The translations under genes and the position numbers were made by a program. A stretch of DNA of 64,000 bases from the IMG/VR virus record IMGVR_UViG_3300044712_002690, positions 96,001 to 160,000 of that record. One strand, written 5' to 3'. Each line of letters begins with the position of its first letter. Within the stretch, counting starts at the first letter, position 1. This document shows positions 3,691 through 30,100 of the stretch, piece by piece. Source of the DNA: a virus. The notes below the pieces were generated by a model. It worked only from the letters and a program-made list of their open reading frames with translations. It had not been told where the DNA came from and ran no database searches.

Positions 3691-4122
3691 TTAATGTAAT
3701 AAATGATCAGCGCAGTAACTAGCTGCAAATGCACCAGGTTTTATCTTGTAATCAAATCCCATAGCAGACACATATCCACTAGCAGCAGCTACATAAGAAT
3801 GTGATTTGTATTTACTGTCTGGGTTAAAGTCTAAGTGAACTTCAAATTTTCTATTTCCAACATATGGATGTATCTCCATAGCACATTTAACAGCCATATC
3901 TACTTCTTTCATTAGTCTTTCTGAGATAGCCATGTATTTAGGATCTTTGCTTTTTTCAGCAAAAACCATACTACCTTTAGATGAAGCTATATGGATAACT
4001 ACAACTAAAGCAAAGTGGGTGTGCCCATCGATAACTTGTGAATCTACACCTACATAAACAGAGCTTGATTCTGGGCTCTCCTCAATGTGTTTTTTAACCT
4101 CTTCATACACTAGCTTTCTCAT
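3691..4122 (-). CDS. RNase H-like YkuK (DUF458) family protein
   Basis: Motifs VYVGVDSQ, RLMKEV, EVHLDFNP and KIKPGAFAASYCADH. Start moved to ATG 4122 to avoid overlap with tRNA-His. Confidence 0.8.
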   Translation of the reverse strand: MRKLVYEEVKKHIEESPESSSVYVGVDSQVIDGHTHFALVVVIHIASSKGSMVFAEKSKDPKYMAISERLMKEVDMAVKCAMEIHPYVGNRKFEVHLDFNPDSKYKSHSYVAAASGYVSAMGFDYKIKPGAFAASYCADHLLH

Positions 4123-4137
4123 AACAAATAACCTCTG

Positions 4138-4210
4138 GGAGAAGTACGAGAATCGAACTCGTATCTTTGGAACCACAATCCAAGGTAATAGCCGTTATAC
4201 GAACTTCTCC
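4138..4210 (-). tRNA. tRNA-His(GUG)
   Basis: Cloverleaf; anticodon arm TTGGA-TTGTGGT-TCCAA; encoded G-1 and C73. Confidence 0.9.
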
Positions 4211-4222
4211 ATAAAAATAAAT

Positions 4223-4287
4223 TTGAGATTGAGAGACTCGAACTCTCGGAAAAGGGTTATGAGCCCTAATCCCCACCTGGATCTCAA
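4223..4287 (-). pseudogene. Degenerate tRNA(CAU) with collapsed D-arm
   Basis: Acceptor TTGAGAT/ATCTCAA, AGGG-CTCATAA-CCCT arm and GAGAG-TTCGAGT-CTCTC T-arm; only 65 nt, no D-stem. Confidence 0.6.
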
Positions 4288-4351
4288 CAGGATACTAGCT
4301 ATCACTAGTAACCTTTTTTGTTCATCGACCGGAGAGAATATGATGTTTATG

Positions 4352-4423
4352 TCGGGGTGGTCGGGATCGAACCGACGACTTTCTGCTCCCAAAGCAGACA
4401 CGCTACCGCTGCGCCACACCCCG
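4352..4423 (-). tRNA. tRNA-Pro(UGG)
   Basis: Cloverleaf; TCTGC-TTTGGGA-GCAGA. Confidence 0.95.
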
Positions 4424-4427
4424 TATT

Positions 4428-4957
4428 TTACTTTAAACAATTCTTGCAGGAGTAAGTACCCTTAGCAACCCATTTCAAGTCTTTAAAAAAGACATTAGCA
4501 CCACATCTATAACAAATTCCTTTTCCTTCTTCAATTAAAACTCGTATTGAATCCCCTTGTTTCCAGAATTTACAATTTTGTATTGCTTCTTCAGTCATTG
4601 GGATCGGTTTTGCATAATTTTGTGGATGACCACAAACAAACATTGCATGAAACCAACAATTATTACAATTATCCACTAGCTTGCTCTTTTAACTCTATAT
4701 TGAATAGCGTCAGAAATATCTCTTAGTTTAGCTGGTTTAGAAACCTTACAATCATCATACTCGCAATTGAAACAATCATCCTCACATACACCTAAATGTA
4801 TTCTAATACAACTATTACACACAGTAAAACTATATTTATTCTCTTGTGTGATAGGAGTGTTACAATATTTACACACATTCCTTTTATTTTTAATTTTATG
4901 AATAGAATTATACTTCCTTTGATATTCTCTTTTTTGCTCAATATCCTTAAAGGGCAT
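4428..4957 (-). CDS. Two small Cys-rich (Zn-finger-like) hypothetical proteins (4428-4676, 4676-4957)
   Basis: ORF track; multiple CxxC pairs; overlapping stop/start. Confidence 0.55.
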
Positions 4958-4990
4958 ATTTTATATCCTTATTGATATTAAAATAAAATG

Positions 4991-5063
4991 AGCTCCCGAG
5001 AGGAATTGAACCCCCAACCTACTGATTACAAATCAGTTGCTCTACCGATTGAGCTACAGGAGC
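4991..5063 (-). tRNA. tRNA-Thr(UGU)
   Basis: Cloverleaf; CTGAT-TTGTAAT-CAG arm. Confidence 0.95.
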
Positions 5064-5527
5064 AAGTAAGTTATGTAGTTGGTTTAAGAGCCAACTTCAT
5101 TTCTTTCATTTTCTTAGTCTTTTCTTTCCAGCTTAGTGATTTCCAAATCTTTTTAAAAATCCTGTAGTTAATATCTTGTGAGGAAGATATTTTCCTACTA
5201 TACTTCTTAAGTACTTTAGCTGTTTTAGTATTCATTTCATCTCCTTTTTCTTAATGTCTTTATATAAATATCTTTTTTTCATTAAACTTTTTATAATTTT
5301 GTCTGTTTCTTCTATTGTTAAATTAGCTAGTTTAGCAATATTATCGATATAACAAGGTTCACTGTTTTTCCATTTATTTACAATGTTATAAACATCTTGT
5401 TCTATTTTAGAAGAGAACTTTTTATAGCTCACAGCATTCCTTTTATAAGATAGTATACAGGCGGCTTATATTTACAACCTTTGCTCTTACCTTCCGGAAC
5501 GGTTACGCGGACGGCCTGTATACTAAT

Positions 5528-5615
5528 TGGCGGAGGCCGGATTCGAACCGGCGTTACAAGTCTTTCGACGCCGAGGGTTATGAGCCCTCCGAGAAGCCAA
5601 CTCCTCTACTCCGCT
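5528..5615 (-). tRNA. Initiator-type tRNA-fMet(CAU) with 20-nt variable region
   Basis: A1:C72 mismatch, A11:U24 pair, three G-C pairs closing loop CTCATAA; V region GGCGTCGAAAGACTTGTAAC. Confidence 0.85.
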
Positions 5616-5853
5616 CTATATTATAAAATATACCAATTGGTTATATTTTTCTTCTAAAACTTTTTAATAATAGCAATAGTACTATCTGAAATCTCTTTCT
5701 TATCTAAATCAATTGAAAGATTAGCTTCAATTGAAATATCATTACTTATATTTACCAATCCATCTTTAGGCTGATTACTTTGCAGAGATGGATCCTTTCT
5801 TAGATTTTTACCGTTTACTGTTTTAAGCCACTCGAACATATACCTTACCTATG

Positions 5854-5932
5854 CAGGGGTGACACGAGTCGAACGTGCATTGCCGAAGCACGGTTTTGGA
5901 GACCGCTGGGTTAGCCATTACCCTACACCCCT
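5854..5932 (-). tRNA. tRNA-Trp(CCA) with extended variable arm
   Basis: GCGGT-CTCCAAA-ACCGT; V region GC-TTCG-GC-AAT; G73. Confidence 0.9.
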
Positions 5933-5942
5933 AAATATTCTG

Positions 5943-6021
5943 AGCAAGTGATGGGACTCGAACCCACAATGCTTTCGCATCAGTTTGGAAGACTGACAGC
6001 TTACCTTTAGCTTACACTTGC
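5943..6021 (-). tRNA. tRNA-Gly(UCC) with extended variable arm
   Basis: TCAGT-CTTCCAA-ACTGA; V region TGC-GAAA-GCA-TT; U73. Confidence 0.9.
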
Positions 6022-7361
6022 TTATTGAATCATTCTTACTTGAGTATAGTCACTAAGTAAGAATCTTCTCTGCTTATTTACTTCTTGAATTGCCTCACAA
6101 ATATTATCATACGATTCAGTTACTAACGTATTAAATTCTTCTTCATTAAATTCTACAATAGTGCGATCTCTTTCAAGACACTCGTATAAGTCTTCTACAT
6201 TTTTATAAAATTTTCTATAAAGAAGAGTATATACTTTTTTTATATCCTTAACATAAAATCTAATAAATGAATCTTGTGTAATGAATCCAATATAAACAGA
6301 GTTATTATCTATTCTTTCCCAAGTACGAAATTTTGTTTGATCTGACCTAACACTAAGTTCTTCAATAAGATCATCTATATTAGCTTTTATATAGCCAGTA
6401 CCATAATGAAAGTTATTTAAATCATATGTACTAGCAGTATCATTACCAATAATAGGATTGTAACCTTCAGGTGCATTTAACCAAATACCATCATGAAGAA
6501 ATAAGTGAAATGAACGTAACATCCATTTGTATAATTCTTCTTTCATATAATTTCTCCTTTCTAATTTATACTTGTAATATATAAAGAAAAGAGAATAAAA
6601 CTAACTAAAGCATTGCTCCAACTTGTGGACTTGTTGTTACTCCTTGTTGTAAGAACGTTGCTGATGCCTGTTGTACAGCTTGTAACCAAGCTTCTTTAGT
6701 AATTAATGAACGAAGTATAGGAACTATATTCACTAAATTTGGATCTTGACTTCCTTGATTATATATTTCAATTCCTATCCAATCCATTGCTGGAATCGAA
6801 TCTGTTTGTGTTTTAGCTTCCTGAGGAACCATACCTTTTTGAGATATAAAATCGTCAATAGTTAATTTTGCTATATTAAGAAGCGTAGAATTAACTAATG
6901 TATTAAGATCTTGCTCAGGATTCTGTTGTATAGATGCAATTAACTTACTAATTTCACTATCAAGAATCTCTTGAGTTAAATCAGCATATTTAACTACTAT
7001 ATGAGCAAAAACAGTTTTATAAAATCTTTCAAGACAATCAGCTCTTCTTGTATCCATATATACTTCTCCTAGATAGATAATATATAAAGATAACATGAAG
7101 AGTGATTTTTTAAGTTTCACTGCTTCAAATAAATTAAGCAGCTACTACTACATCTTTCTCCATACGATTAACACCAATAACTTCAAACTTCTCATCTTCA
7201 TTCCACTTAGCTTTAACAGCAGAAGCAGCAGCACCTACATCAGTAGCAACAGCTAGTTCACAGCGGTTGATAACTTTTCCTGTAGTGCGCGAGGTACGTT
7301 TAATGTCTACATGGTACAGGTTCATTATAAAGCTCCTTTCATTTAATTTATTTTGATACAT
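6022..7361 (-). CDS. Three hypothetical proteins inside the tRNA cluster (6022-6546, 6605-7120, 7134-7361)
   Basis: ORF track; RBS-like GGAG/GAGGAG upstream; no family recognised. Confidence 0.6.
6576..6607 (-). promoter_or_regulatory. Phage promoter-like motif TAGTTAG-N19-TATATT
   Basis: One of seven copies with the same spacing, each upstream of minus-strand genes. Confidence 0.6.
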
Positions 7362-7363
7362 TT

Positions 7364-7395
7364 AATATAAGAAACCTTTACTAATAAAGTAACTA
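7364..7395 (-). promoter_or_regulatory. Phage promoter-like motif TAGTTAC-N19-TATATT
   Basis: Same bipartite motif upstream of the 7134-7361 gene. Confidence 0.6.
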
Positions 7396-7400
7396 GTATG

Positions 7401-7480
7401 TACCACGAGAGGGACTCGAACCCTCACCAATTAAGACTAGTTCCTAAGACTAGCGCGTCTACCAGTTCCGCCATCGTGGC
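7401..7480 (-). tRNA. tRNA-Leu(UAG)
   Basis: CTAGT-CTTAGGA-ACTAG; class II V arm; A73. Confidence 0.95.
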
Positions 7481-7483
7481 ATG

Positions 7484-7556
7484 TGCTCAAGGTCGGGATC
7501 GAACCGACTACACACGGATTTTCAGTCCGTTGCTCTACCTTCTGAGCTACCTGAGC
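7484..7556 (-). tRNA. tRNA-Phe(GAA)
   Basis: ACGGA-CTGAAAA-TCCGT. Confidence 0.95.
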
Positions 7557-7561
7557 TCATG

Positions 7562-7635
7562 TGGATCGTCCCTGACTCGAACAGGGGGCCTAATGATTAT
7601 GAGTCATTTGCTCTAACCAACTGAGCTAACGATCC
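7562..7635 (-). tRNA. tRNA(CAU), elongator Met or Ile2
   Basis: AATGA-CTCATAA-TCATT; G1-C72. Met and Ile2 cannot be distinguished by eye. Confidence 0.9.
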
Positions 7636-7641
7636 AAGAAT

Positions 7642-7716
7642 TGGGACTTCTCCGACTTGAACGGAGGACCTATTGCCTATCAAGCAATTGCTCTAACCAA
7701 ACTGAGCTAAAGTCCC
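7642..7716 (-). tRNA. tRNA-Ile(GAU)
   Basis: ATTGC-TTGATAG-GCAAT. Confidence 0.93.
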
Positions 7717-7734
7717 TGTTTTGAAAGAAAAATA

Positions 7735-7908
7735 AACTAAAGGTGTGTTGCTACACCAAAGGAGACACATTGTTTATCCTAGCCAACACTTCCTGCGGGT
7801 CTCACAGGTCTTAGTTTTTACACTTGGTCAGTTTCGGAATGATCTCCACTCATTAAAGTATACAGTTTCCCAAGCTGCTGGCTACCTCTAAGCCCACTGC
7901 CTTTAGTT
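7735..7908 (-). ncRNA. Structured ncRNA with a 23S rRNA uL11-binding-domain-like core
   Basis: Closing stem AACTAAAGG/CCTTTAGTT. Core GGGCTTAGAGGTAGCCA...TTTAATGAGT...GTGTAGCAACACAC aligns with 23S H43-H44. Confidence 0.7.
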
Positions 7909-7914
7909 ATTCTG

Positions 7915-7987
7915 TGGACCTGATCGGTTACGATCCGACTACCTCCTGCTTGCAGGGCAGGCGCTCTCCCAATTGAGCTACAGGCCC
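7915..7987 (-). tRNA. tRNA-Ala(UGC)
   Basis: G3:U70 pair; CCTGC-CCTGCAA-GCAGG; atypical T-loop ATCGTAA. Confidence 0.9.
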
Positions 7988-7994
7988 TAATTAG

Positions 7995-8231
7995 TTAATG
8001 TTTTAGCTTTTCACCTTCTTTAATCATTTCTTCTATAACATTGTCAATTAAAGTAAAAAGTTCGTCACTATTTCTATCTAGTAAAGCAGCTACACCACTA
8101 ATTATTTTTATTTGAGTACTTATTTCTTCATCTTCGTCTTCACTTACAGGAAGATACATTGAAATTGTATTATCAGTACGAAGAACAAGTGCTGCATCAC
8201 CATCTTTTAATGTAATTTTTGTTTTACCCAT
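7995..8231 (-). CDS. Hypothetical protein
   Basis: ORF track; AAGGA upstream. Confidence 0.6.
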   Translation of the reverse strand: MGKTKITLKDGDAALVLRTDNTISMYLPVSEDEDEEISTQIKIISGVAALLDRNSDELFTLIDNVIEEMIKEGEKLKH

Positions 8232-8256
8232 AAATGTCTTCCTTATGTTTGGTATT

Positions 8257-8330
8257 TGGATCGGGTGAGGGTCGAACTCACGACTCCTGCATTAAAAGTG
8301 CAGTGCTACTACCAACTGAGCTACCGATCC
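8257..8330 (-). tRNA. tRNA-Lys(UUU)
   Basis: CTGCA-CTTTTAA-TGCAG. Confidence 0.95.
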
Positions 8331-8391
8331 TTTCGTTTATTACTTTCCTTATCACTTTCCTTCATAAGGAAACCTCCTTTAAATTAAAATG

Positions 8392-8467
8392 TGTTCCTGA
8401 AGGGACTCGAACCCCTAACCTTCTGATCCGTAATCAGAAACTCTAAATCCAATTGAGCTACAGGAAC
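8392..8467 (-). tRNA. tRNA-Arg(ACG)
   Basis: TCTGA-TTACGGA-TCAGA. Confidence 0.95.
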
Positions 8468-8475
8468 TTAAAATG

Positions 8476-8548
8476 CGTCCCAGGAGAGGATCGAACTCCC
8501 GACAAACGGATTAGAAATCCGTTGCTCTTCCACCTGAGCTACTGGGAC
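8476..8548 (-). tRNA. tRNA-Arg(UCU)
   Basis: ACGGA-TTTCTAA-TCCGT. Confidence 0.95.
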
Positions 8549-8605
8549 AAAAAGCGTGTTGATATACTCAACACTAAAACCAACGATTTCCATCCAAATC
8601 GCTTG

Positions 8606-8677
8606 CTCTGGAGGCAAGGATCGAACTTGCGACCAATCGGTTAACAGCCGATGGCTCTACCGCTGAGCTACTCCAGA
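8606..8677 (-). tRNA. tRNA-Asn(GUU)
   Basis: ATCGG-CTGTTAA-CCGAT. Confidence 0.95.
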
Positions 8678-8682
8678 ATATA

Positions 8683-9552
8683 TTAGATAAAAGGAGTTAA
8701 ATGCAATAACCTTTTAATTTTCCATTTGATATTTTTTATTAAGTAAATACTATATCTTACTATTCTTTTAACAGTCCATTTGTTTTTTATTTCAATTTCA
8801 TATTGACCATATTTAGTTTTAGATACTATTTGAAATGCATTGAAAAATTGATCGTTTGATCCCCATGGTACACCACAGTCATATTCTGTTCCATCTTTAT
8901 ATTCAATTGAAATACCTGTTATGTCTGAATGGTTAGTAACTCTTTTATATAAAGATACATATTCATCATTCCAATTTTTATATTGTAATGGTTTAAGGTC
9001 TTTAAATATGACATAAATCCACTCTGCACCATCACGTTCATCACCTTGTGTTACATTACAACACGAATAGTGTTTGTGAACTTTTCCAATATACCAATTT
9101 GAAATATGTTTAATATCTATTTTAGCAGTATCACAATTTTCAAAGATTAATACTACATTTTTCACTTCTTTAAACATGTTCTATTATATCCTTGTATGCG
9201 AGGCTGAAGGGACTCGAACCCTCGACCTTCTGCGTGACAGGCAGACGCTCTAACCAAACTGAGCTACAACCCCGTTTATTTAAGAATCAGCAATCTCACT
9301 AGTAAAATAACGATTTTGTGAAACTGTAAGTGCTGTACAAAGACTACATTGCCAACATTTATGTTCCACCATCCATTTAGCATACTCTTTTAATTCTACA
9401 CCTTCAATTACTATCGAAACAAGAAGTTCTCCATTATCTTTTATTTCAATAGTAGGAAAATCTTCTTTCAAGTCAGCTAATACTTTAGCTTTAAGAGCAG
9501 TAGCACTATCCTTATCAGCACAAACTTTATCAAAAGCAAGAAGATCTTTCAT
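8683..9552 (-). CDS. Two hypothetical proteins (8683-9177, 9280-9552)
   Basis: ORF track; interleaved with tRNA genes. Confidence 0.6.
9199..9273 (-). tRNA. tRNA-Asp(GUC)
   Basis: TCTGC-CTGTCAC-GCAGA; G73. Confidence 0.95.
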
Positions 9553-9573
9553 ACATTACTCCTTTAAAAATTG

Positions 9574-10058
9574 TGCCCAAGGCCGGAGTCGAACCGGCAC
9601 GGAGAAATCTCCATGGGATTTTACTTACCACTATAGCTTTCGCTACCAGTATTGCGCGTCTATTAAACTTTTTACTACTTATTTATTTAATGTGGTTCGT
9701 AGCCCCCACTCTTAATAGAATACTGTTTGTAGTCTGGACTTTGTCTTCACCATATTAAAGTACCACGACTGCCATATCACTGACCTCTATGTAGGCCACA
9801 GTCCTTATGACTTTAATTTAGGTGGTGCCCGTCAAGTCTCTACACGTTCCAAGCAGGTGAGGTATCAGATTATTTCTAATCTTCTCATTCTCCTTTTGCT
9901 TTCCTTACTTGGTTTCGCTCGGCGTTGGGTCATATAGATTCTAATTAAGATCTCTCCATATAGGCCGTTCACCGAATTTGAGCACTTACTACTAAAAAGT
10001 TTCCTTTTTAGCGACCCTTTAATGAGTCCCAGGTGTCTACCAATTCCACCACTTGGGC
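9574..10058 (-). tRNA. tRNA-Leu(UAA) interrupted by a group I intron
   Basis: 5' exon 10058-10025 ends GGGACT and 3' exon 9623-9574 starts TAAAATCCC; joining them gives loop CT-TAA-AA and a class II Leu cloverleaf. Confidence 0.9.
9624..10024 (-). mobile_element. Group I self-splicing intron (401 nt, no homing-endonuclease ORF)
   Basis: P1 GACUC/GGGUC with U-G at the splice site; core-like elements AAATTCGGTGAA, AACGCCGAGCGAA, GTGTAGAGACT and AAGACAAAGTCC; terminal G. Confidence 0.88.
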
Positions 10059-10060
10059 AA

Positions 10061-10141
10061 AATAAAGTAAGGTCTAGCAAGTAGAAGTAGGGAGGTAACA
10101 TTTCAAGCGTTAACCTACTCCTATCCGTACCTTACTTTATT
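10061..10141 (-). ncRNA. Y RNA-like hairpin (unit 5)
   Basis: 13-bp terminal stem AATAAAGTAAGGT/ACCTTACTTTATT; GGTACGGA on the 5' strand, CTAGACC on the 3' strand; inner stem AGGAGTAGG/CCTACTTCT. Confidence 0.7.
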
Positions 10142-10153
10142 AGAATTCAGAAA

Positions 10154-11767
10154 TTAAATGCCCCCTTTAGCAAATTCAGAAATGATTGATGGTGCCGCTG
10201 AATCGAAGCCGCAAACATCAAGCATTCCAGGGTCTTTAGGATCTGCAATTGTAAATTGAGTTCCTACCATACCTACAACAGCTAATTTAGCATCTTTCAC
10301 ATGAGCGTTTCTATACTTTTTGAGTGCTTGGCTTGGTGCAATTCTTCCGGCCCAAGTCTCATTATCAGTATAGATTGTAAAAATATCAAAGTCTAATTTT
10401 TCTCTAAGAGCCCATTCCATCGGCAATGCACAATCTGTTCCTTCGAATGGAAGACCTGAAATTTTTCTAATAGTTTCATTCAATGACATTCTAGGAGTAA
10501 TGTCAAGGTGCATGAATCTACTAGAGAATCCCATAATCTCATAGTTCTTTTCTGTACGAGCAGTTACCATTGCCATACAAGCAGATGCTTCACGGCAAGT
10601 AACAATACCATACGCTCCAGAAATATAAGCTCCTCCCATTGAACCAGATACGTCAAGTGCAAGTAAGAATCTTTTATCTGTTGGTTCAATATTCTTGAAA
10701 CTAAGATAAAAAGCTTCTTCAAGTGCATCACGTACTTTACCAACAGGCTTCCAAGTAAGACTACCTTTGATTCCATGACCCATTGAATATGTTTTTAATG
10801 CAATGAGAATATTCAATGGATGCAGTCTACTTTTAGAAATATAATCCTGATTAGTTAATTTTCCAACCACACGTTCAATTTCATTAAACTTACCAGGACC
10901 AATTACTCCGATTGCAGTAAGTCTGTTAAGACTTCTCATTAATGCTGTAAGTGGAATATCATCAAGAGCTTCTGTCCAAATACTAACATTATTCTTCAGT
11001 TCAGTAGGCCAAGCATCTTGAGGAATTTTGTATTCCTTAATAAGCTTTTTAGCTTTTGCTACATCAGCTGTTTTAAGTTCATCGAAAGCATTAATAAGTT
11101 TCAATGCTTCTGATTTTTCTCCTTTAACAGCATACTTAAAAAGCTCATTATGAGCATCGGACACTGGTTTTACGTGTGCAGAACGAAGAACATCTCGATG
11201 TGTCCACTGATTTCCTGTTCCTTCAACAGTACGTCCTTGATATTTAACTAGTTGATATTCAAGTTTAGAAGGTTCCATTGCATACCAATTAGAAATAGCT
11301 TTACGTACTGACCTTCCCCAACTTCTCATTGTATCTACATAGTGAGTAAACATGAAAAGATGAGTACCTGTACGACAAATCTTAGGCATAGCCTTTGAGA
11401 TTTCAGTTTTGAAAGAACTATCTTTACAATTAGTAATAAGAGCTGCTAAAAGGAAAATAGCTTGATCATTTTTAGCTGCTCTACCTGAATCAGAAATTTC
11501 TACAATAGTTTCAAGTACACGTTTAGGGTCTTCATCTATACAAGCTAAGCAATTTGAGATGTTTAGCTTAGTAAGATCATTTTGAGTGACATAGTATGTT
11601 CCGCCTTCAGACCCAAGCACAAGGAAGCGTTGGAGCATCTTCCACTTATCTAGTACGAATGTGTACCCACCTGCATTATTCTTTGCCATTTCCTTTTCAC
11701 GACCAGGAATAGGCTGAGATTGAGGTGTTTGTTTAGAATCTTGAAAAGAACTGTAATTGACAGCCAT
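10154..11767 (-). CDS. rsr: Ro60/TROVE-domain RNA-binding protein with vWA domain
   Basis: NNAGGY, LQRFLVLGSEGGTYY, RTGTHLFMF, KYQGR, HPLNIL, and MIDAS DVSGSM, TDCALPM, YTDNETW. Start at ATG 11767 after GAAGGAGG. Confidence 0.95.
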   Translation of the reverse strand: MAVNYSSFQDSKQTPQSQPIPGREKEMAKNNAGGYTFVLDKWKMLQRFLVLGSEGGTYYVTQNDLTKLNISNCLACIDEDPKRVLETIVEISDSGRAAKNDQAIFLLAALITNCKDSSFKTEISKAMPKICRTGTHLFMFTHYVDTMRSWGRSVRKAISNWYAMEPSKLEYQLVKYQGRTVEGTGNQWTHRDVLRSAHVKPVSDAHNELFKYAVKGEKSEALKLINAFDELKTADVAKAKKLIKEYKIPQDAWPTELKNNVSIWTEALDDIPLTALMRSLNRLTAIGVIGPGKFNEIERVVGKLTNQDYISKSRLHPLNILIALKTYSMGHGIKGSLTWKPVGKVRDALEEAFYLSFKNIEPTDKRFLLALDVSGSMGGAYISGAYGIVTCREASACMAMVTARTEKNYEIMGFSSRFMHLDITPRMSLNETIRKISGLPFEGTDCALPMEWALREKLDFDIFTIYTDNETWAGRIAPSQALKKYRNAHVKDAKLAVVGMVGTQFTIADPKDPGMLDVCGFDSAAPSIISEFAKGGI

Positions 11768-11790
11768 TTTGCTGCCTCCTTCATATAAGA

Positions 11791-11852
11791 TTAGGTCAAG
11801 TAGTTGGAATAGGGGAAACATTCTGAAGTTAACCTACCCCATCCGTACCTAA
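11791..11852 (-). ncRNA. Y RNA-like hairpin (unit 4), directly upstream of the Ro60 RBS
   Basis: TAGGTACGGA ... CTTGACCTA bulged helix resembling the Ro-binding site; inner stem TGGGGTAGG/CCTATTCCA. Confidence 0.75.
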
Positions 11853-11859
11853 AACCTTT

Positions 11860-11986
11860 AGGAACAAGGCAGGATTTGAACCTGCGACCAGCCCATTATA
11901 AGTGGTAACCTTTTCTCTTCCGTACCTTTCAGTCAATAGTTTGAAAAAAGGGTTTTAGCTGCTCTACCGCTGAGCTACTTGTTCCT
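11860..11986 (-). ncRNA. tRNA-like Y RNA, YrlA type (unit 3)
   Basis: Acceptor, D (TAGCTCAGCGGTAGAGC) and T (GCAGG-TTCAAAT-CCTGC) arms. The anticodon arm is replaced by a long stem ending TTGACT-GAAA-GGTACGG. Confidence 0.85.
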
Positions 11987-11987
11987 T

Positions 11988-12115
11988 GTCCTAAGGGGAG
12001 GACTTGAACCTCCGACCCGTAGTGTGACCTGTTAACCTTAACCTGCCGTACCTTTCGGTCAAATAATCGGAAAAGGTATTTTAACTACTGCTCTACCAAC
12101 TGAGCTACCTTAGGA
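11988..12115 (-). ncRNA. tRNA-like Y RNA, YrlA type (unit 2)
   Basis: Acceptor TCCTAAGG/CCTTAGGA with D and T arms; long central stem ending TTGACC-GAAA-GGTACGG. Confidence 0.85.
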
Positions 12116-12124
12116 TATAAATAT

Positions 12125-12190
12125 AATTGGTCAAATGAGTTGCGATAGGATGCTAACACCATAAGTTAACCTATCACATCCGTACCAATT
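12125..12190 (-). ncRNA. Y RNA-like hairpin (unit 1)
   Basis: AATTGGTACGGA ... TTTGACCAATT; inner stem TGTGATAGG/CCTATCGCA. Confidence 0.75.
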
Positions 12191-12194
12191 AATT

Positions 12195-12266
12195 CTGCGG
12201 GACTAGGACTCGAACCTAGACAACAGATTCCAAGGACCTGTGTCCTACCAATTAGACCATCCCGCA
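12195..12266 (-). tRNA. tRNA-Gln(UUG)
   Basis: U1-A72, G73; CAGGT-CCTTGGA-ATCTG (C at position 33). Confidence 0.85.
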
Positions 12267-12310
12267 ATAAGAAATACAATTATATCAGGTACTTTTTGAC
12301 TTCTACTTAT

Positions 12311-12342
12311 AATATAAGATAAGTAAAAGAAGAAAGTAACTA
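12311..12342 (-). promoter_or_regulatory. Phage promoter-like motif TAGTTAC-N19-TATATT
   Basis: Upstream of the tRNA-Gln/Y RNA/Ro60 block. Confidence 0.6.
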
Positions 12343-12345
12343 ATG

Positions 12346-12432
12346 CGGGCAGAGTAGGATTTGAACCCACGGAACCTTTAGATCCTCTAGTTTTCAAGAC
12401 TAGCGCCATAAACCAGACTCGGCCATCTGCCC
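12346..12432 (-). tRNA. tRNA-Ser(UGA)
   Basis: CTAGT-CTTGAAA-ACTAG; long V arm; G73. Confidence 0.95.
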
Positions 12433-12436
12433 GATG

Positions 12437-12523
12437 CGGAGAGGAAGAGATTTGAACTCTTATCGGCCTGCCGGCCTACGCAGGTTTAGCAAACCTGTCA
12501 CTTACCAGTTAGTGTACCTCTCC
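12437..12523 (-). tRNA. tRNA-Ser(GCU)
   Basis: CAGGT-TTGCTAA-ACCTG; long V arm; G73. Confidence 0.95.
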
Positions 12524-12528
12524 TAATG

Positions 12529-12602
12529 CATCGGGGACGGGACTTGAACCCGCAAATACCAACGTGAAAGGCTGGTGACTTTACCAATTTGTCTACCCCG
12601 AC
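12529..12602 (-). tRNA. tRNA-Glu(UUC)
   Basis: CCAGC-CTTTCAC-GTTGG. Confidence 0.93.
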
Positions 12603-12604
12603 AT

Positions 12605-12679
12605 TGGACCGTCAAGGAATTGAACCTTGCTGAAAAACTATCCTGTAAAAATAGCGCCTACCCAGCCGGCCCACGGTCC
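12605..12679 (-). tRNA. tRNA-Val(UAC), atypical D-arm
   Basis: CTATT-TTTACAG-GATAG; acceptor GGACCGT/ACGGTCC; non-canonical residues at positions 8-14. Confidence 0.7.
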
Positions 12680-12757
12680 ATAAAGCCTACTCTTTGTTTA
12701 TAGTGGCTGTTGGCAGCGTAATTCCACTACACGATTTAAAGCTAGTGCGTACTCATT

Positions 12758-12843
12758 TGGATGGGGAGGGATTCGAACCCCCAACGCTCAATCGAGTCCA
12801 GATTTACAGTCTGGTAGTGTCCACCAGTCTCACAAGCCCATCC
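12758..12843 (-). tRNA. tRNA-Tyr(GUA)
   Basis: CCAGA-CTGTAAA-TCTGG; long V arm; A73. Confidence 0.88.
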
Positions 12844-12904
12844 ATTTTCGTTAGGTTAATATATAAATTTTATATATTAACCTGTTTTCAAATATCGTAA
12901 TATC

Positions 12905-27103: not shown

Positions 27104-30100
27104 TTAAAATGCCCTTTCAGCTGTAAATTGTACATTCCATTTAGATGCTGTAACATTACCATAACTGTTGGCATCTAGTCTTTGTATACTGAACGAAGTA
27201 TTTACACCACCTTTGAATAAAAAAGTATTTCGTCTTAATTGTGTAGGAACAGGAACATTGACTGCTGATGTGCCGTCTGTCATTGTTAGTGGAGATTTAT
27301 CACCGGGGAAATATCCATATTCACTACTAACATTAATTATGTAACCAGTAGGAAAATATTTTCTAGTTCCAAGATTATGAGAAAATGATACAGTAGTATT
27401 TGCTGCTGGACAAGCTGTTTCTGCTGATTCATATCTTCCATTATAAGCATATGTTGTTACGGAATTAACAGTAGTCGCTAATATTGTAGCAGTTGTTATA
27501 TGGCATGTAACATTCGCTGCATTTAAAGCAGTTGTATTTCCTACAAAGTTTCCATCGCTCTTCATTACAGTTAGATAAGTAAATAAAATATGCGATGCTG
27601 TAGGAGCAGGAACAGCAGCTAAAGCTAGTGCTTCGCTAGCGTAACCAGCAGCATTACCAGCAGCATCTTTTGAATGTACTGTACCATCAACTCCTATTTC
27701 CCAACCAAATAATCCCCACTTACCACTTGGAACTGTTGTTGCTGTTAAGGTAGCAACTGCTGCTGCTTTATAATATCCAACTGAAGCAATTTGAAAGTAA
27801 AAGTTATTATGAACTACTCTTGCTGGTGTTATAACATCAATGATTGTTCCTGTACTAGTTATAACTCCATCTGTTGATACTCTTCCTGTTTGACATTCAC
27901 CCATAAAAGTACGATATTTTTGTGTCCAACCAGCAGTAGGATTTCCTTCGTACATTTTATACTTAATTGTATCAAACCAATGTACTGTTGGGGCAGTTAA
28001 ATCAGTAGGAGGAGTAAATGTAGTAGTCCATCTTGCATAAGGTTCGAATTGGAAATTGTCTATATATCCTGTCGCAGGAACAGAACCAGCCCCAGAATAC
28101 CCAAGTCTGAAATATTGATGTGTAAATATTTGTAATGCAGAAGAAGCTATTTGATCTAAAACACCGTCAATGAAGAATCTATAACAAGTTCCATCAAACA
28201 CTATGGCGCTATGGTACCAAGTTGCATTACTGTAAGTTGTATCATAACCAGCAAGAGCATTAGCAATATTCCAAGTTGATGCGTCACTGGATAGATAATA
28301 AGTCAATCTATTGGTTGCAAAAGTAATACCTAAACTCACATCTGCACTGGCATTGATAAGAGATTGTGTTCCTGAAGCGGAATCTAGTCTCCACCAAAAA
28401 TGAATTGTCCATTTTGAGGGTAAATTATATGGTACAGGTAACTGTACATATCCATTAGTTCCAGCCACTCTAATTGATGAAGAGCCAGATTTAAACTGAG
28501 CAGTTGAAATTGTACAGTTTGCCGCTGAAAATACAGCAGTATTACCCATTAAATCAGTGTAAGAGGTTGCTCCATTCGTACCTTCAAATGTAGCACAAAT
28601 AGACTGACCTTTATATCCTATATAAGATTGATCATATACGGGAGGATATAAATTAAAATTAAATGTACCGTCTCCATAATCTGGACGCAATTCATCAGTA
28701 GTATCGCAATAAATAAAAGGAGTAGCATATTCAGTTAGAGATCCTACACCATAATAATTAGGGAAATATCTAACAAAATCTACAGGACCGTTATAACTAT
28801 TACCTCCAGCAAAAGTAATACCAAACGGTGTTGAACCACCAAGTCCCTCTACAAAATCATTATCTAATGTAATAGTTAGACCACTTCCATATGTATACGC
28901 TGCTGTAGATAAAATACTTGGTACATTACTAGTATTTTTTCCATATATGACTGTTTGTCTTTTTATAGGAGCACAGGGAATAGCAATAGGTGACCAATAT
29001 GTAGGTAAATCTATTTCAAAGTCAGAGCCCGATGTATGAGTAGAATACGCAATATATAATTGTTCTCCATACCTAACAAGAGAATATGCAACATATTCTG
29101 TACTTGCTGCCCATTGTGGGAAACGAACACCTTGAGAAGTAATACCTAAAGTAAATCCATATATAAGTTTTTTACTATAAGAATCTTCAGAATCCTCTAT
29201 TAATAAAACATCAGTTTCTACTAATTTATTTTTATTTGTTAAATTTACAATTTCACTACTTACAGATTTATGAAAAGCATCAGCATCACCTGTGCTACTA
29301 AAGAAATTACTTACAAGTATTTTCTTTTTGTTATATGAATCATTACTATCCTCTATTAAAAGAATGTCGTTGTTTTCTGGAGTAACTTTTAAAGTTAAAG
29401 CATTAAGCTCGCTAGATATAGCTTTATGAAATACAGCTGTATCTGTTGCTTTAGTTGTGTCAGATGGGTGTCGGTGATCACCTCTAGTTACTGTATTTAA
29501 AGACCCTGCCCAACCTGCACCATCCATTTGCAGATTGCCATCTGTAATTTCAATCTGCAAATAATCATCTACTCTATCTAATGCACTTTGTACAGTAGTT
29601 TGTGATGTTGTAAAAAATCCATTAAAGTTAGTAGTGTCAGTATTAACCATAGAAGCGGAAATAGTAGTAGTTGGTGAACCTAATACTGAACCTGATACTG
29701 TAGCTACACGAACATTTAAGAAAGTAGCATCTACTAATCTCATTCTATTTTGATTAAACCCAGCAGTAGTGTTATAATGAAAGGTAAGCCTATAGAATGG
29801 TACAACTTCTTGGATACTAAGTCCAGCTAATCCTACTAAATTTGCAAATTGAAATGCTGCTTCTCCGAGTGTAGTTGTTAATGTCGCACTAGTGGATTGA
29901 CCTTGTCCTAATATAGCTATTACAGGTTCGCTAGTTGTATTAGTAGCACATAGATATATAGGAAAATATCTATTTGCTGTCATGGCAGAAAATCCGCCAG
30001 CAATAGCATTGTTAAATTGATAAGTTGCTGTAGCTATTGTTGCTGCAGTAATAGCAGCACCACCAGAAACACCAACAAAGTCAGTAGTAGTTAATTTTCT

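Follow-up and report, generated by a model that had tools for sequence, protein, structure and literature searches.

Comparative sequence analysis of a phage RNA that copies the uL11- and factor-binding domain of 23S rRNA

In a 64,000-nt stretch of a metagenomic virus record (hereafter the window), the space between two tRNA genes holds what, on the evidence of its relatives, is a real structured phage RNA copying the domain of the ribosome that binds uL11 and the translation factors. The RNA belongs to a family that is widespread in phages and apparently undescribed. Covariation within this family, including covariation between bases in tertiary contact, carries the case for the fold; the proposed function, that of an off-ribosome decoy for uL11, is weighed below against its rivals.

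An rRNA-like element within a phage tRNA array

The virus record, which is found in rhizosphere metagenomes, is 178,984 bp long and has a G+C content of 32%. An array of 22 tRNA genes occupies the minus strand of the window (4137-12844) and includes a Ro60 gene and an RNase H-like gene, and the element fills the gap between tRNA-Ala and tRNA-Ile on the minus strand. The initial annotation had read this gap as an imitation of the H43-H44 region of 23S rRNA, interrupted by hairpins and closed by a 9-bp stem. All of the sequence blocks that it named occur on the minus strand and follow one another as claimed, and its coordinates for the closing stem, which runs from G7900-C7743 to A7908-U7735, were exact; four further pairs beyond a bulged U reach 7912/7730. 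The features are as follows (1051-1108 are E. coli 23S rRNA numbers).

7914-7987, minus strand: tRNA-Ala(UGC), upstream neighbour; the RNA starts 2 nt past its discriminator base
7730-7912, minus strand: whole RNA, ~183 nt, a predicted free-standing mimic of the GTPase-associated centre (GAC) closed by a long-range helix
7900-7912, minus strand: closing helix, 5' arm, replacing the top of H42; G7900 equals G1055; no kink-turn 42
7895-7899, minus strand: 1057 stem, 5' strand, with C1056, A1057, G1059, U1060 and G1061
7879-7894, minus strand: H43 equivalent (1062-1077), with A1067 at 7889, G1070 at 7886 and U1072 at 7884
7860-7878, minus strand: insert 1, a 19-nt hairpin between 1077 and 1078, within the footprint of the uL11 C-domain
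7848-7859, minus strand: 1078-1090 strand, with the U-turn loop, U1082.U1086, A1084, A1085, G1087, A1088 (7850), G1089 and U1090
7761-7847, minus strand: insert 2, a branched domain of 87 nt in which a 6-bp basal stem encloses a predicted hairpin at 7792-7808
7757-7760, minus strand: UUUG linker connecting insert 2 to G1091; family-specific, with no rRNA counterpart
7743-7756, minus strand: H44 tip and 3' strand (1091-1104), with U1092 (7755), A1095 (7752), A1099 (7748) and A1101 (7746)
7730-7742, minus strand: closing helix, 3' arm, with one bulged U; a U-rich spacer follows
7642-7716, minus strand: tRNA-Ile(GAU), downstream neighbour, beginning 13 nt beyond the closing helix

Compared with the GAC of 23S rRNA (top of H42, H43 and H44; E. 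coli 1051-1108; the 58-nt uL11/thiostrepton domain), the phage RNA has the same order, sequence and pairing of 1055-1104, and it keeps 1082-1086, the triple 1072-1092-1099, U1060, A1088 and both factor-facing loops. It differs in being a free-standing gene of ~180 nt whose own closing helix (7900-7912 / 7730-7743; 9 bp, the bulged U and 4 bp, in one continuous helix) stands in place of H42 with kink-turn 42, and in adding a helix and UUUG after 1090, an A at 1101 and an optional hairpin after 1077. This copy further lacks pair 1058-1080, which leaves a 1057 stem of 2 bp compared with 3 bp in rRNA. Its position 1056 is C, its 1082-1086 pair is U.U and its position 1101 is A. The U1092-A1099 pair (7755/7748) that had been put forward as a compensatory change is as claimed, and the third member of the triple, U1072 at 7884, is changed as well; the triple thus reads U-U-A, and G1070 is also present. 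At the bases listed as the interface of the uL11 C-domain (PMC1802607), namely 1058-1060, 1062-1065, 1075-1083 and 1088, the key bases are kept, pair 1058-1080 is missing and the 19-nt hairpin follows 1077.

A gapped alignment of the element to E. coli 23S 1054-1104 scored 44, against a mean of 18.3 and a maximum of 36 for 2000 dinucleotide shuffles, and the element was the best of 5960 segments of the phage genome compared with the E. coli domain, the next unrelated segment reaching 38. The 16-nt H43 motif alone has 2 mismatches. In a second run, which belongs to a different study, the contigs show 0 differences over 7629-8000 (both runs may stem from one campaign), and because they carry the identical sequence, the odd features of this copy are unlikely to be assembly errors. 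Plain folding does not set the element apart (z -1.6); support for it comes from comparison with its relatives.

No Rfam family was matched at 7730-7912; a preQ1-II match on the opposite strand, at 21.7 bits, lies far under the Rfam cut-off. Promoter and terminator scans remained at chance level, and the reads of two RNA runs, which were chosen by guess, cover tRNAs only and are uninformative on the element either way. Comparison of insert 2 with 16S, 23S and 5S rRNA revealed no convincing further mimicry, a second H44-like tip such as that at 7814-7823 occurring in 1 of 150 inserts where 0.7 is expected. Pairing of 7870-7874 with 7823-7827 is possible, an alignment of four sequences being uninformative on it.

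The tRNA array has several further features of its own. The Ro60 gene (TROVE and vWA domains; window 10154-11821, minus strand) lies inside the array and encodes a protein with 42-44% identity to actinophage Ro proteins; just upstream of it are two tRNA bodies with anticodon-arm inserts of 52 and 55 nt (window 11860-11985 and 11988-12114, minus strand). A tRNA-Leu(UAA) at window 9573-10058 (minus strand) has a 401-nt intron according to ARAGORN, for which the Rfam gathering search called no intron family. The RNase H-like gene (PF04308; window 3691-4176, minus strand) marks the end of the array, and two other loci have a homologue close to the RNA. Ro60 was absent from the loci of the other family members examined.

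A family of related RNAs and its covariation

Scanning IMG/VR with the 5' half and its insert gave 10 matches, all of which run on into an H44-like 3' block past a second insert. A scan for this 3' block alone returned at least 118 matches, most of them with an H43 block upstream, and a three-block profile, after further scans, brought the total to at least 167 copies, of which at least 143 are distinct; with nine cultured phages, 152 family members were analyzed. One further loose scan yielded mostly noise, and two pattern scans for close relatives of the inserts of this copy found no new members. The cultured carriers are the Pseudomonas phages pf16, UNO-G1W1 and Astolliot, Xanthomonas phage XacN1, Cronobacter phage GAP32, Serratia phage BF, Acinetobacter phage ME3, Ralstonia phage RSP15 and Aeromonas phage 4_4572, and none of their nine records has an RNA annotation at the element. 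CBB and fHe-Yen9-04 also match both ends of the RNA. When the element itself was compared with cultured phages by blastn, only chance matches were obtained; the relatives were reached via other family members. A GTDB scan for the form with insert 1, which did not cover the commoner form, found two true 23S genes only.

A tRNA is present in 105 of 143 loci; in 56 of 138 it lies within 100 nt of the RNA, and in all 56 cases both share a strand. Among the 143 loci, no protein family is a recurrent neighbor of the RNA. A full copy lies between tRNA-like genes on a 910-kb record of Pseudomonas sp. FeN3W that is called a plasmid (CP136011.1; L334:1500-1780). Two different copies occur in one phage in L105 (1128-1225 and 2183-2354) and, adjacent to one another, in L157 (3854-4077 and 4107-4327). 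A Patescibacteria 23S gene has a short tandem repeat of H43 (L124:4242-4286) that is probably an assembly error, and the U-U-A triple with G1070 seen in our phage RNA is also found in several Patescibacteria rRNAs.

No description of the family was found in a search of mostly non-subscription papers and of the main text of Weinberg 2017; an entry for it in some large list of structured-RNA candidates is possible. LSU rRNA, GOLLD and intron models gave no match at the element in the viral loci scanned, and as neither the LSU rRNA nor the GOLLD model of Rfam matches it, the check that the initial annotation had proposed points to no described Rfam family. The suggested relation to GOLLD RNAs is not supported: the window and the related loci scanned contain no GOLLD match, and the tRNA-array setting is all that the two have in common. 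GOLLD and ROOL are likewise phage noncoding RNAs near tRNA islands and of unknown function (bioRxiv 2024.12.08.627333), but they measure 500-800 nt or more and form cages, whereas the phage RNA has 183 nt and no Rfam match; any rRNA likeness of GOLLD or ROOL is not mentioned in that preprint. GOLLD was rejected as an identity because no match was seen at gathering or E-value thresholds and because 183 nt compares with several hundred and a conserved 3' domain.

Covariation was assessed in an anchored alignment of the 152 members by G-test with background correction and a tree-based null. Fifteen pairs were significant at E<0.05, and all 15 fall within the proposed structure: eight in the closing helix, 1058-1080, 1092-1099, two basal pairs of insert 2 and, at the tertiary level, the non-canonical 1082-1086 and the pairing of 1072 with both 1092 and 1099. 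The claim of structural mimicry of the uL11 domain is thus strongly supported across 152 relatives, tertiary contacts included. Position pair 1082-1086 is UA in 92 members, CG in 29 and AU in 18, the U.U of our copy being a minor form (8/152), and the triple 1072/1092/1099 is CCG in 91, UUA in 57 and mixed in 4 (n=152), having changed state several times on the tree. Because 1072 lies outside the patterns by which most members were found, its link was not built in. Further, an independent MAFFT alignment of 49 members, with 94% of cells paired, gave a covariation of 0.546 compared with 0.171 when shuffled and 0.06-0.17 when slid.

The secondary structure of the GAC (the 1051-1108 stem, the 1057-1081 stem, H43 and H44) is found in the phage RNA, the tertiary triple 1072.(1092-1099) and the pair 1082.1086 are supported by covariation, and the covarying tertiary contacts are those described for the rRNA junction (PMC2952862). 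U1060 and A1088, which form a long-range pair in the GAC, are invariant, although invariance by itself is no proof of pairing. Bases listed for the uL11 C-domain interface (PMC1802607) hardly vary: in the 124 members found by 3' patterns only, U1060 and A1088 are conserved in 100%, G1063 and C1079 in 99%, and G1059, C1075 and A1077 in 98%. Covariation that extends to tertiary contacts therefore indicates that the fold is under selection in three dimensions, and we hold a GAC-like tertiary fold to be close to certain. Nearest-neighbor folding misses the full model in most members, as is to be expected of a fold that relies on Mg2+ and tertiary contacts; the GAC folds autonomously, and uL11 does not bind it unless the tertiary fold has formed (PMC6239185).

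Judged from the alignment, the closing helix, the helix and UUUG after 1090 and the pair U1090-A1101 are family-specific features. An insert after 1090 is found in every member, 25-365 nt long and variable in sequence. In the 27 members found without selecting on UUUG, its letters are U in 27, 26 and 26 and G in 24; pairing of UUUG with 1083-1086 is conceivable but without compensation (U.U in 26). Position 1101, opposite U1090, is A in 150 and G in 2 of the 152 members, whereas it is U in all 198 of the 23S rRNA copies listed, which represent two phyla. The insert 1 hairpin is optional (28/143), and the shortened 1057 stem recurs in L125, L151, L172 and L179, making five of 152 members in all. 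Of 131 copies of insert 2, 20 contain one 3' hairpin motif and 6 contain a different 3' motif. Modules of insert 2 are conserved in subgroups (L008, L023, L324, L325 and others, and also L323, L329, L330 and L331), and the second 3' motif is common to XacN1, ME3, RSP15 and BF. Flanks resembling kink-turn 42 of rRNA occur in only three distinct relatives, L039, L090 and L164 (L164/L178), which are possibly the closest to the ancestral capture and, to judge by these flanks, may still bind uL10.

Insert 2 starts after U and ends in G in the manner of a group I intron, and true rRNA fragments do contaminate phage records. The idea that the element is a decaying segment captured from host 23S rRNA, an intron-split rRNA fragment, a contaminant or a product of chance is nevertheless hardly credible: no LSU match exists in the genome or in related loci, the flanks are phage tRNAs or genes, helices that are not of rRNA origin covary, and copies lie in finished genomes of cultured phages. 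We rejected a 23S rRNA gene (RF02541) because of the absence of an LSU match in the window, the genome or the family loci, in a search in which the true rRNAs L123 and L124 scored 2726 and 1642 bits, and a group I intron because no model matched, guide sequences numbered 39 against 37 expected and inserts are as short as 25 nt. A decaying rRNA piece is ruled out by the covariation of the non-rRNA helices.

For this particular copy, the predicted lowest-energy fold contains a 9-bp helix (7876-7884 / 7780-7788) that opens H43. This fold is more stable than the GAC-like one by 8.5 kcal/mol, a gap at the high end of those computed for the family (median 5.1). The predicted helix may represent misfolding or a switch restricted to this copy, whose nearest relatives, inspected by eye, show no sign that it is kept. 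This copy also carries both changes in the uL11 footprint, the 1077/1078 hairpin (28/143) and the loss of pair 1058-1080 (5/152). Because of these changes and the rival helix, the case for the family is stronger than that for this copy.

Candidate partners and uses of the RNA

We give an even chance to the proposal that the RNA is cut from the tRNA transcript and binds uL11 as a decoy. The RNA would be cotranscribed with the phage tRNA array, and trimming of the 3' end of tRNA-Ala together with RNase P cleavage at tRNA-Ile would free an RNA of ~190 nt, whose ends would be shielded by the closing helix so that the domain could stand without the ribosome. Its partner would be host uL11, the sole protein known to bind the isolated domain tightly, and the decoy could either compete for newly made uL11 or hold a uL11-RNA surface that attracts factor-binding proteins. 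The likeliest benefit would be altered stress signaling by the factor-binding center of the host.

Phage RNAs that act as decoys include the RNA anti-CRISPRs (Racr) and the pseudo-ToxI of phage PhiTE, and Y RNAs (YrlA) mimic tRNA. These are likewise small and, by imitating a host RNA, keep the protein partner of that RNA occupied, but their models are crRNA, antitoxin or tRNA, and none copies an rRNA domain. The leaders of ribosomal protein operons (rplK-rplA for uL1 and rplJ for uL10) are also copies of rRNA protein sites outside the ribosome; however, they work in cis, on the operon they precede, and imitate small motifs, whereas the phage RNA lies among tRNAs rather than ahead of a ribosomal protein gene and reproduces an entire tertiary domain. 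A leader was rejected as an identity on the grounds of the tRNA flanks and of the phage record, in which a uL11 or bL12 gene was not found, and we know of no leader that binds uL11.

The partner is probably a host protein, because no neighbor protein recurs, no link to Ro60 is seen and no uL11 or bL12 gene was found in the phage record or in four cultured carriers. uL11 is the best candidate since the folded domain binds it even in isolation and no bases are better conserved than those of its interface, and it is further favored by the loss of the uL10 kink-turn and by an H43 tip more variable than that of rRNA. On the sequence data, binding of uL11 by this copy seems slightly more probable than not, and, if uL11 is bound, use as a decoy during infection would be very probable. 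The conserved interface bases are also those that build the fold, so that conservation cannot separate binding of uL11 from folding.

RelA activation requires uL11 (PMC7058999). Given sufficient RNA and a free pool of uL11, a uL11 sponge could dampen the stringent response. The pool of free uL11 is probably small, and ribosomes, once assembled, retain theirs; this would limit what a sponge can achieve before lysis in a short infection cycle. A decoy that lowers RelA/Rel-dependent (p)ppGpp through uL11 appears doubtful on its own. No MazG or HD_4 gene is consistent among five carriers. In XacN1 (W01), HD_4 genes of the ppGpp hydrolase type lie above the Pfam cut-off at 28703-29134 and 347498-347929, and none was found at that cut-off in the other four records.

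The RNA could instead be a decoy for a reader of the factor-facing tips (the A1067 and A1095 loops), be it a translation GTPase, a ribosome sensor or a GAC-directed toxin or modifying enzyme, and would then belong, with the tRNAs, to a phage translation-rescue kit, a role suggested by the tRNA-array setting. We know of no defence toxin that targets H43/H44. In the 27 members found without selecting on them, G1091, G1093, U1094, A1095, A1098 and C1100 are invariant, and EF-G binds isolated thiostrepton-domain RNA, according to a title cited in PMC3496166. Base 1067 seems partly to track the host: G1067 also occurs in Bacteroidota rRNA, and members with G1067 lie on contigs poor in Shine-Dalgarno (SD) motifs (median 0.11 compared with 0.33, p 0.002, uncorrected for kinship). 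On the other hand, the H43 tip is looser than in rRNA, with A1067 in 121/152 and G1068 in 109/152 members compared with 195/198 and 197/198 (80% and 72% compared with 98.5% and 99.5%, from 23S rRNA of two phyla only and uncorrected for kinship); Acinetobacter phage ME3 has G1067/A1068, and the triple of ME3 and RSP15 is U-U-A, unlike E. coli-type rRNA. A factor, sensor or toxin decoy stays in play because of the invariant H44 tip and of the hint that G1067 follows Bacteroidota-like hosts, but we consider it unlikely.

The other rival of weight is that the RNA serves as a scaffold for the variable insert. The GAC fold would here be borrowed as a stable platform presenting insert 2, and function would lie in the insert or in RNA-RNA assembly, without a ribosomal protein partner. 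Insert 2 is found in every member with conserved submodules in subgroups, UUUG and U1090-A1101 have no counterpart in rRNA, and the inserts sit in the uL11 footprint. However, the inserts, at 25-365 nt, have no core in common, in contrast to a GAC part that hardly varies, and exposed bases such as A1095 are preserved; this reading appears improbable.

More improbable still is a constructive platform that gathers uL11, stalk proteins and GTPases for phage translation or tRNA delivery, or that exchanges with damaged ribosomes. Presumed co-transcription with tRNA sets and the kink-turn 42 flanks retained by L039, L090 and L164 are consistent with such a platform, but the kink-turn required for uL10 (PMC10931766) is missing here and in nearly all other members, the phage genome contains no copy of the sarcin-ricin loop, and the closed ends offer no obvious entry into 23S rRNA.

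Significance of the RNA family

Phage genomes are known to encode tRNAs, tmRNA and a handful of ribosomal proteins, but we are aware of no published phage gene that specifies a functional domain of rRNA. Because selection has kept the whole tertiary fold in at least 150 RNAs of diverse phages, something in the infected cell probably reads this shape off the ribosome. It is a tentative proposal, with less than an even chance of being right, that a free-standing copy of an rRNA domain in large phages of many hosts titrates uL11 or a GAC-reading sensor or toxin and so provides an RNA-only means of switching off the stringent response or a translation-targeting defence. If this is true, the partner would lead to a novel host defence directed against the factor-binding center. 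Cultured carriers, such as pf16 on Pseudomonas putida, open both the partner and the phenotype to direct testing, and the family amounts to a mutagenesis experiment performed by nature on a textbook RNA fold, recording which helix grafts are tolerated and which pairs are dispensable.
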